Below are positions 45,182 through 45,423 of a stretch of DNA of 45,423 bases, in pieces. Location of the stretch: contig JBNJGY010000011.1 of assembly GCA_051748045.1 (NCBI GenBank), positions 1 to 45,423 of the forward strand. The letters are read 5' to 3'. The DNA is from Thermotogota bacterium. Lineage in GTDB: Bacteria > Thermotogota > Thermotogae > Petrotogales > Petrotogaceae. The notes under the pieces were generated by a model. It was given only the letters and a program-made list of their open reading frames with translations. It did no database searches and was not told the origin of the DNA. A program made the position numbers and the translations under genes. Position 1 is the stretch's first letter; the number at the start of each line of letters is the position of its first letter.

Positions 45182-45286
45182 CTATATTCTTCTTGAATTT
45201 TCCATCCAAATTTTATTTAATTCGTTGTCCAATCTATCAAATCCTGAATAATATGATCTAGCTTTATTTTTTCTTTTTATAATCAT
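45182..45286 (-). CDS. Putative 34-aa small protein P2 (MIIKRKNKARSYYSGFDRLDNELNKIWMENSRRI)
   Basis: G-rich SD ~6 nt before the ATG at 45286 (alternative ATG at 45292); similar to the upstream micro-ORF; followed by the terminator. Confidence 0.62.
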   Translation of the reverse strand: MIIKRKNKARSYYSGFDRLDNELNKIWMENSRRI

Positions 45287-45304
45287 ATCCATCCCCCCTA
45301 TTTT

Positions 45305-45409
45305 TTAAAAGAGTTTATAACTTTCTTGGAGTACTTTTATATTTTCCTCAGCAAGTCTGTCGAAAGAATTTTTCATAATATCTTTTCTCATTTGTTCTCT
45401 TTTCATCAT
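45305..45409 (-). CDS. Putative 34-aa small protein P1 (MMKREQMRKDIMKNSFDRLAEENIKVLQESYKLF)
   Basis: Perfect AAGGAGG SD (45423-45417) 7 nt before ATGATG; stop TAA at 45307-45305. Confidence 0.7.
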   Translation of the reverse strand: MMKREQMRKDIMKNSFDRLAEENIKVLQESYKLF

Positions 45410-45423
45410 TTCAATTCCTCCTT

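Follow-up and report, generated by a model that had tools for sequence, protein, structure and literature searches.

Do two open reading frames (ORFs) of only 105 nt at the very end of a Thermotogota contig encode proteins and, if so, what might these proteins do? The question is raised by the 45,423-nt contig JBNJGY010000011.1 of the Petrotogaceae assembly GCA_051748045.1, a Geotoga genome (G000) of 2.41 Mb in 158 contigs with 28% G+C. The whole of this contig (C11) is the window of the present analysis. The P1 gene (45305-45409, minus strand) and the P2 gene (45182-45286, minus strand) are spaced by 123 nt from start to start, and each encodes 34 residues, followed by TAA in P1 and TAG in P2. 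The Shine-Dalgarno (SD) sequence of P1, AAGGAGG, is formed by the final seven bases of the window (45417-45423, minus strand) and is positioned 7 nt upstream of the P1 ATG. The G-rich SD sequence of P2, GGGGGG (45293-45298, minus strand), precedes the ATG at 45286 by 6 nt. P2 has a second in-frame ATG two codons upstream (45292), but this codon falls out of frame in the sister genome G001, which makes 45286 the likelier start. An intrinsic terminator with a 15-bp stem, a 7-nt loop, and a T-tail (45115-45151, minus strand) is located 30 nt downstream of the P2 stop codon. Aligned without gaps, the two proteins share F16, D17, R18, L19, E22, K25, and E29, and the shared residues are encoded by different codons (TTC/TTT, GAC/GAT, and CTT/TTG). 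The two ORFs with their spacing, the shared residues, and the codon differences agree with the original prediction, made from the window sequence. The conservation of the two ORFs and the synonymous bias of their divergence mark P1 and P2 as genuine coding genes, each with a start of its own, and their expression signals are strong.

A single promoter and a single hairpin terminator are common to P1 and P2. The promoter, a perfect TTGACA-17-TATAAT, lies outside the window on contig C6 (C6:176-204, minus strand). Its 17-nt spacer is devoid of a palindrome, and both promoter and leader are kept in the sister genome. Perfect sigma-70 promoters of this class occur 35 times in the 2.41 Mb of the genome, compared with approximately 3.4 expected from base composition, and about ten of the 35 precede a tRNA-like sequence, as judged by eye.

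The syntenic site of G001 contains three ORFs, P1a, P1b, and P2'. The P2' protein is 97% identical to P2 and is longer by three residues, as the stop codon is replaced by a lysine codon. The two P2 genes differ by 8.0 synonymous and 1.0 non-synonymous changes, which corresponds to a synonymous divergence (dS) of 0.72 and a ratio of non-synonymous to synonymous divergence (dN/dS) of 0.017. Over codons 14-34, P1 and P1b encode an identical protein and are separated by 5 synonymous and 0 non-synonymous changes. Within the N-terminal 13 codons, P1 differs from P1b by 0.5 synonymous and 14.5 non-synonymous changes, and from P1a by 3.5 and 7.5, respectively, so that P1 is nearer to P1a in this part. 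Since its N-terminal half resembles P1a and its C-terminal half is that of the P1b protein, P1 looks like a chimera of the two, as unequal crossing-over inside the shared core would give. Across the P2 family described below, dN/dS ranges from 0.02 to 0.67 in 11 of 12 pairs, and the twelfth, a recent pair, has no synonymous change. The protein-level selection that had been proposed from the codon differences is upheld by the synonymous-biased divergence of both genes: P1 and P2 are under purifying selection at the protein level.

A profile built from five sequences identified relatives of P2, short ORFs led by SD sequences, in other genera of the same bacterial family. Twenty-five distinct sequences could be aligned. 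Their consensus is a methionine, 6-12 mostly basic residues, and the motif SYYxG[FY]DxLxxELxxxYLENIRR[IL], directly followed by the stop codon. At least 90% of the 25 sequences keep D17 and E29. The C-terminal helix terminates exactly at E-N-[IS]-R-[RK]-[IL]-stop, and the N-terminal Lys/Arg tail is variable. The members are 28-41 residues long, and all 25 are preceded by a GGAGG-type SD sequence. The possibility that they are decayed fragments of one gene was rejected, as every member has this length and its own SD sequence and start codon. The genes form arrays of 2-3 ORFs in four genera and are single in a fifth. The promoters are close to the sigma-70 consensus: the -35 box is TTGAC[ATG] in all 17 arrays examined (nine A, seven T, one G), and the -10 box is TATAAT in 15 of them. 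One genus has a subtype of the form ...SYYEGF[DE]x[IM]xELKD[IV]LIEMKRYQ[FIL]. In four Petrotoga-type genomes (loci L018, L020, L021, and L024), G+C-rich repeats of about 35-40 nt with GGGTGGGCAGCGGGGCGAA-like cores are located 20-120 nt 3' of the micro-ORF and contrast with the A+T-rich background.

When 151 Thermotogota genomes were scanned, the family profile matched G000 and 22 of the 25 other genomes of the same bacterial family, with 1-12 matches per genome and fast divergence of tandem paralogs. Weaker matches within the family were, by eye, SD-led ORFs of 31-41 residues with an SYYxGF core. Of the three genomes that were missed, G002 is 68% complete and G010 has a clear member in an earlier profile scan. 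The profile also matched 4 of 125 genomes from ten other Thermotogota families; these matches are read as chance because they sit inside frames of 388-791 residues at E values of 0.001-0.009. Among 1.84 billion representative proteins, the profile had 15 matches, 13 of which are P2-family proteins of 30-37 residues; the two long ones are an unrelated repetitive protein of 271 residues and a protein of 804 residues. Public proteins that are identical to family members and bear a name come from Geotoga petraea, Petrotoga sp., and Oceanotoga, where they are annotated as 'hypothetical' or 'uncharacterized'. P1 and P2 themselves have no exact copy in this public protein collection. The profile searches show P2 to be the Geotoga member of an unnamed family confined to a single Thermotogota family and present in almost all of its genomes. 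The names on the identical public proteins identify this bacterial family as Petrotogaceae and place the window in Geotoga.

The original prediction did not recognize the family, and neither do the collections searched here. Significant matches were absent from Pfam (best E 0.1), NCBIfam (0.089), PHROGs (0.0094, one of the 25 members), PADLOC (0.0097, one of 25), and the sequences of the PDB (0.33), and the ESM Atlas gave no usable match. A literature search returned nothing relevant among the papers listed on Petrotogaceae small proteins, Petrotoga transcriptomes, or Thermotogae bacteriocins. The passages on Thermotogae in PMC4289311 do not name Petrotoga, Marinitoga, or Geotoga. The P2 family is a new, unnamed small-protein family in dynamic tandem arrays.

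How P1 relates to P2 is a separate matter. P2 was not recovered with P1 as the tblastn query (E≤100), and the pairwise similarity of the two sequences, taken alone, does not exceed chance. A profile of 20 non-Geotoga members placed P2 as the top match (E 6e-13) among the 40,254 six-frame segments of G000. When a profile of three P1-type sequences was compared by hhalign with one of 22 family members, the two aligned in register over positions 13-32, with P 6.5e-4 and a probability of 27.6%. P1 is devoid of the SYY-x-G motif and ends in YKLF. Searches revealed no P1-type protein outside Geotoga, and the second ORF of a G007 array (L035:1596-1697), considered as a P1-type candidate, was rejected because its similarity was not significant (P 0.054). 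The claim that the two proteins are paralogous therefore stands in part, with modest support: the profile match speaks for P2 but not for P1. Because of the profile-profile score, the same length, the adjacency, and the divergent tandem arrays elsewhere in the family, P1 is likely, although not proven, to be a Geotoga-only divergent relative and paralog of P2.

The array was suspected to extend beyond the window. Contig C6 begins with the 99 nt that close the window, a stretch with no other occurrence in the assembly. Past this overlap, C6 contains a 90-nt A-rich leader, followed by the P1-P2 promoter, and no further copy of either gene. Further on are the terminator of a 289-residue gene without a family match and a gene for a Crp-type regulator. 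The join of C11 and C6 is real, because the same-genus genome G001 has the same gene order. In the whole six-frame translation, the motif FDR[LIVM]xxExxK is present only in P1, P2, and the 99-nt duplicate on C6; tblastn and this motif scan found no further paralogs of P1 or P2 in G000. The unit in this assembly thus consists of promoter, leader, P1, P2, and terminator. An extended array is refuted for this assembly and is found as three-copy forms in the sister species and in environmental contigs.

Contigs from three RNA libraries and one DNA run were compared with the locus; coverage gaps and depths are uninformative on expression level. RNA libraries X5 and X9 and DNA run X1 each yielded one 147-nt contig at P1, composed of a P1-like C-terminal part with six differences, a linker of 12-14 nt, and an exact copy of the window from 45423 downwards that extends for 83 nt in the RNA libraries and 30 nt in the DNA run. 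In these contigs the sequence recurs in tandem about every 117 nt, which is also the period from P1a to P1b in G001. Because C11 ends exactly at the point where the leader and linker contexts diverge, we infer that the contig break is probably due to both two-copy and three-copy forms in the sequenced material. Copy number shifts via tandem duplication and unequal crossing-over, with two copies here and three in the sister species and environmental contigs. The presence of the P1 sequence in two RNA libraries is a weak hint of transcription.

Both proteins are predicted to form a single amphipathic helix, as anticipated. The AlphaFold2 model of P2, calculated from a 25-row alignment, is one helix of residues 2-33 with a predicted local distance difference test score (pLDDT) of 82.8, exceeding 90 in the C-terminal half. 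The P1 model, from three rows, is likewise one helix of residues 2-33 (pLDDT 89.3). The hydrophobic moments of P1 and P2 are 2.5-3.1 standard deviations above those of shuffled sequences. The grand average of hydropathy (GRAVY) is -0.92 for P1 and -1.13 for P2 within a range of -0.5 to -1.4 across members, and the segment of the last 20 residues has a mean hydrophobicity of -0.09 in P1 and -0.34 in P2. The N-terminal tail carries a net charge of +1 to +5, and the C-terminal 20-mer one of -2 to +4, with a hydrophobic moment of 0.31-0.71. The five Geotoga members have a net charge of +2 to +6, except for P1b, with 0. P1 and P2 contain no signal peptide, no membrane segment, and no cysteine, and P2 has 13 charged residues among its 34 and no hydrophobic stretch. 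A type I toxin was rejected as a candidate, as P2 has no membrane-spanning hydrophobic segment. A predicted complex of P2 with P1, each supplied as an alignment, scored 0.02 against a mark of 0.32 without controls and has no bearing either way.

The genomic surroundings of the P2 family were examined in 32 fetched arrays. The neighbors vary and include genes for an aminotransferase, serpin, flavodoxin, DUF3795, cyclic nucleotide (cNMP)-binding proteins, a metallo-beta-lactamase fold, ArsR regulators, HutD, a chemoreceptor, Dus, an integrase, POR, GGDEF, and a nitroreductase. No conserved modification, export, or immunity gene is located beside the arrays. At six of the 32, a transporter gene on the same strand begins 10-38 nt after the last micro-ORF. 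Five of the six transporters belong to the major facilitator superfamily (MFS; MFS_1 or MFS_3), four of them from a single genus and the fifth from a Petrotoga-type genome, and the sixth is an ATP-binding cassette (ABC) exporter. Between the two genera, the MFS genes show homology (32% identity, E 1e-43). Their homolog in G000 stands alone and best matches the 2A0121 H+ antiporter model (248.9 bits; cut-off 319.6), with Mef(A), EntS, and Tap weaker. In G011, the MFS gene 3' of the micro-ORF (L043:1190-2200) is split into a 44-residue N-terminal piece and 289 residues in another frame, as a result of either a frameshift that made it a pseudogene or a mistake in the assembly.

A second tandem micro-ORF family was noticed via a pump promoter in G000, and is present in two other genomes of the genus, G001 and G002. 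The members, 26-37 residues long, have a basic tail and after it the consensus SA[KRN][DE]xI[FYM]xxYSxVxxEL[IM]RxF; each ORF has a strong SD sequence, and the ORFs form arrays of 2-3. There are eight matches in G000, three in G001, and one in G002. The G000 matches are at C13:16796-17023 (minus strand), C14:30496-30697 (plus strand), C52:31-228 (minus strand), C99:38-109 (minus strand), and C102:4415-4498 (minus strand); loci L056, L067, L071, L073, and L070 cover these contig regions. The position of several matches at contig ends suggests near-identical repeats. Aligned with hhalign, the second family is in register with the P2 family and not significantly similar to it (P 0.015 with two sequences, 0.0051 with ten), and no relation to P1 was found (P 0.087).

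Six G000 promoters contain a 14-nt palindrome, with up to two mismatches to TGAAGTTTACTTCA, right after the -35 box within a 19-nt spacer. Four of them drive second-family arrays, on C13 (minus strand), C14 (plus strand, 30411), C52 (minus strand), and C99 (minus strand). The fifth, on the minus strand of C5, drives the MFS_3 pump gene (36951-38165) that is the G000 homolog of the array-linked MFS pumps, and the sixth, at C5 7875 on the plus strand, drives a gene for a 408-residue GNAT acetyltransferase (Acetyltransf_9), behind which lies an HD-domain gene. Several of these promoter regions also share another palindrome (GGAGTGCACCCC-like), located upstream. Two P2-family arrays in G004 contain the perfect palindrome TGAAGTTTACTTCA with the same spacing within a 19-nt promoter spacer. 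MerR-type activators of multidrug pumps work on promoters built in this way, with the palindrome within a 19-nt spacer, and the six promoters look like one regulon with MerR-style promoters. Nine MerR_1-domain matches were found in G000 (on C86, C5, C18, two on C38, C42, C1, and C98), none of them linked to the palindrome sites, and five of the nine are in unusually long open frames of 413-432 residues.

What, then, could P1 and P2 do? We tentatively hypothesize, with somewhat less than even confidence, that P1-P2 is a two-gene unit of about 0.4 kb that makes two abundant cytoplasmic single-helix micro-proteins, which dock on a partner. The proteins would be trans-acting: through the conserved face of their C-terminal helix (F16, L19, L23, and I26/W27, together with D17, E29, R32, and R33) they may dock on a partner macromolecule, and the basic tail may touch an anionic surface. 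The sole partner class hinted at by the genomes is that of efflux pumps of the drug/H+ antiporter type, and our leading specific guess, from gene context, is a putative pump-modulating or stress-response role. Such a mode of action would have precedents in Escherichia coli, where SgrT acts on PtsG and MntS on MntP; both are cytoplasmic transporter binders of about 40 residues without a membrane segment. The micro-ORF-pump operons in two genera suggest this analogy, but sequence similarity to SgrT and MntS is absent, and most family members, P1 and P2 included, are not beside a pump.

Several observations weigh against this hypothesis. At the P1-P2 locus, the neighbors are a gene with a tRNA_SAD domain, the 289-residue protein, and the Crp-type regulator, without a hint of a pump, and most P2-family arrays stand alone with unrelated neighbors. 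Four of the five MFS cases come from one genus and may represent a single evolutionary event. The palindrome TGAAGTTTACTTCA is missing from the P1-P2 promoter. The family membership of P1 is insecure, as the profile of non-Geotoga members misses it at E<10 among the same 40,254 segments. A lone helix is the usual AlphaFold output for any short amphipathic peptide. The RNA-library contigs may be DNA carry-over and give neither expression level nor strand, and both translation and a partner are predictions.

The main alternative, which we regard as unlikely, is a variant of the trans-acting hypothesis with another partner: P1 and P2 could be small basic proteins associated with nucleic acids or the ribosome, in which the Lys/Arg tail and SYYxGF bind RNA or DNA and the helix dimerizes or packs on nucleoprotein. 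The positive net charge is concentrated in the N-terminal tail, the P1-P2 promoter is of the perfect class that precedes tRNA-like sequences in G000, and near-universality in one bacterial family fits a core role. However, the presumed binding part is the least conserved region of the protein, 1-12 matches per genome with fast-diverging tandem paralogs would be odd for stoichiometric components of ribosome or nucleoid, and there is no similarity to any ribosomal or nucleoid protein family. Improbable in our view are leaderless exported membrane-active peptides, for which the adjacent MFS and ABC genes would serve as exporter or immunity genes. This explanation draws on two known types of systems. 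The psm-alpha 1-4 and psm-beta operons of staphylococci, which encode phenol-soluble modulins, are, like P1-P2, short operons of tandem paralogs with their own ribosome-binding sites and a strong promoter, and their products are single amphipathic helices without a signal peptide. Loci of the aureocin A70, garvicin KS, and enterocin L50 types encode 2-4 similar leaderless cationic peptides of 30-44 residues side by side. The divergent tandem paralogs with own SD sequences in one short, strongly promoted operon, the copy-number polymorphism, and the exporter-type gene directly 3' of 6 of 32 arrays are in keeping with such a function. Nevertheless, phenol-soluble modulins are hydrophobic, membrane-lytic, and secreted by a dedicated ABC exporter, whereas P1 and P2 are very hydrophilic (GRAVY of about -1), with a basic tail, conserved acidic residues, and no indication of export; theirs is neither a hydrophobic nor a strongly membrane-seeking helix. 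Leaderless bacteriocin loci include transporter or immunity genes and are patchy among strains, in contrast to the P2 family, which is nearly universal in one bacterial family, under strong purifying selection, mostly stand-alone, and composed of far more polar proteins. An exporter or immunity gene is absent from the P1-P2 locus and from most arrays, and MFS pumps are, from general knowledge, unlikely carriers of charged helices of 4 kDa.

Several tandem small ORFs spread over the genome could also be precursors of peptides made by the ribosome and modified after translation (RiPPs), matured by an enzyme encoded elsewhere, as in scattered precursor arrays. One second-family array is placed accordingly: on C14, a radical-SAM gene with its own terminator (L067:126-1196, plus strand; 356 residues), the array, and an MFS_1 gene follow one another. 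The best NCBIfam matches of the radical-SAM protein are NirJ/AhbD heme and SPASM-type peptide maturases, all far below their cut-offs. This adjacency was rejected as a RiPP signal and considered a coincidence, as it occurs at only one of eight second-family arrays. No maturase was found among the scanned neighbors of the 32 P2-family arrays. About 20 C-terminal residues are conserved up to the stop codon and the N-terminal part varies, which is opposite to the pattern of RiPP precursors, with their conserved leader and variable core. At the P1-P2 locus, a precursor-peptide role, one of those originally entertained, is not supported, given the lack of an adjoining maturase or transporter, the lack of cysteine, and the C-terminal position of the conserved part, and we consider it very unlikely. 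It is hardly probable that P1 and P2 are cis-acting leader or arrest peptides or an untranslated small-RNA unit. Conservation does peak over the last approximately 20 codons up to the stop codon, and some relatives are located 10-38 nt 5' of pump genes, a class that can be controlled by leader peptides. Against this, the terminator follows 30 nt after the P2 stop codon, there is no downstream gene on the same strand, and the next gene is convergent; gaps of 10-14 nt to pump genes are too short for an attenuator; and synonymous-biased divergence and strong SD sequences favor functional proteins. A search of Rfam with the locus, the adjoining contig, and the sister locus gave nothing at E≤0.1, with two chance-level matches at E 0.13 and 0.55. 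Thus, at the P1-P2 locus, as distinct from the family as a whole, exported peptides are disfavored by chemistry, RiPP precursors by context and conservation pattern, and leader peptides by the terminator.

We speculate, while rating it as rather unlikely, that several families of tandem, basic, single-helix micro-proteins (26-41 residues, a dozen or more genes in G000), the Mef/EntS-type MFS pump, and the GNAT acetyltransferase form an undescribed system of this bacterial family. It would be a drug- or stress-inducible regulon, with MerR-style promoters that contain the 19-nt spacer and the TGAAGTTTACTTCA palindrome. The micro-proteins could be a new class of intrinsic-tolerance effectors that, for example, modulate pumps or protect ribosomes or membranes, with P1 and P2 as constitutive, highly expressed members. 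The BmrR, BltR, and Mta regulons of Bacillus subtilis, which comprise the MFS pumps bmr and blt and the acetyltransferase gene bltD behind 19-nt palindromic spacers, have a layout that the six G000 palindrome promoters match with their MFS pump and GNAT acetyltransferase. Unlike in G000, where four of the six promoters drive micro-ORF arrays, such arrays are not known from the B. subtilis regulon.

Bacterial proteins of fewer than 50 residues routinely escape annotation or stay 'hypothetical', and a role has been assigned to very few of those from deep-branching thermophiles. P1-P2 is a well-defined gene pair with a complete set of expression signals and selection at the protein level, and P2 stands for a family that almost every genome of one Thermotogota family carries and that the searches did not find elsewhere. 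The pump operon fusions and the promoter palindrome common to pump and acetyltransferase are leads to function. If the link to pumps or stress holds true, these proteins would represent a new type of small-protein effector in bacterial drug and stress tolerance.

On the plus strand, a convergent 361-residue gene with a tRNA_SAD domain (44027-45112) ends with its stop codon 3 nt from the terminator hairpin. A plus-strand T-run was seen by eye at the same hairpin (45115-45151), and the terminator probably acts in both directions. Two other observations concern the promoter and the leader. A promoter on the minus strand of C14 (position 28638 on the reverse complement) has a 17-nt spacer one base off that of P1-P2 (TTGACAAATAAAAAAATAAAGTATATAAT), and drives a 126-residue protein that, by eye, resembles a small GntR/YtrA-type regulator. 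The Geotoga P1-P2 leader on C6 and the leader of an array in G007 (L035:1390-1420, contig C6 of that genome) share their first 23 nt behind the -10 box (AATAATGAAATTAAAAAAATTAA) without a difference. G007 belongs to a different genus, and the proteins encoded behind the shared leader start are only 44% identical; AATAATGAAATTAAAAAAATTAA may be a conserved element of the 5' untranslated region.

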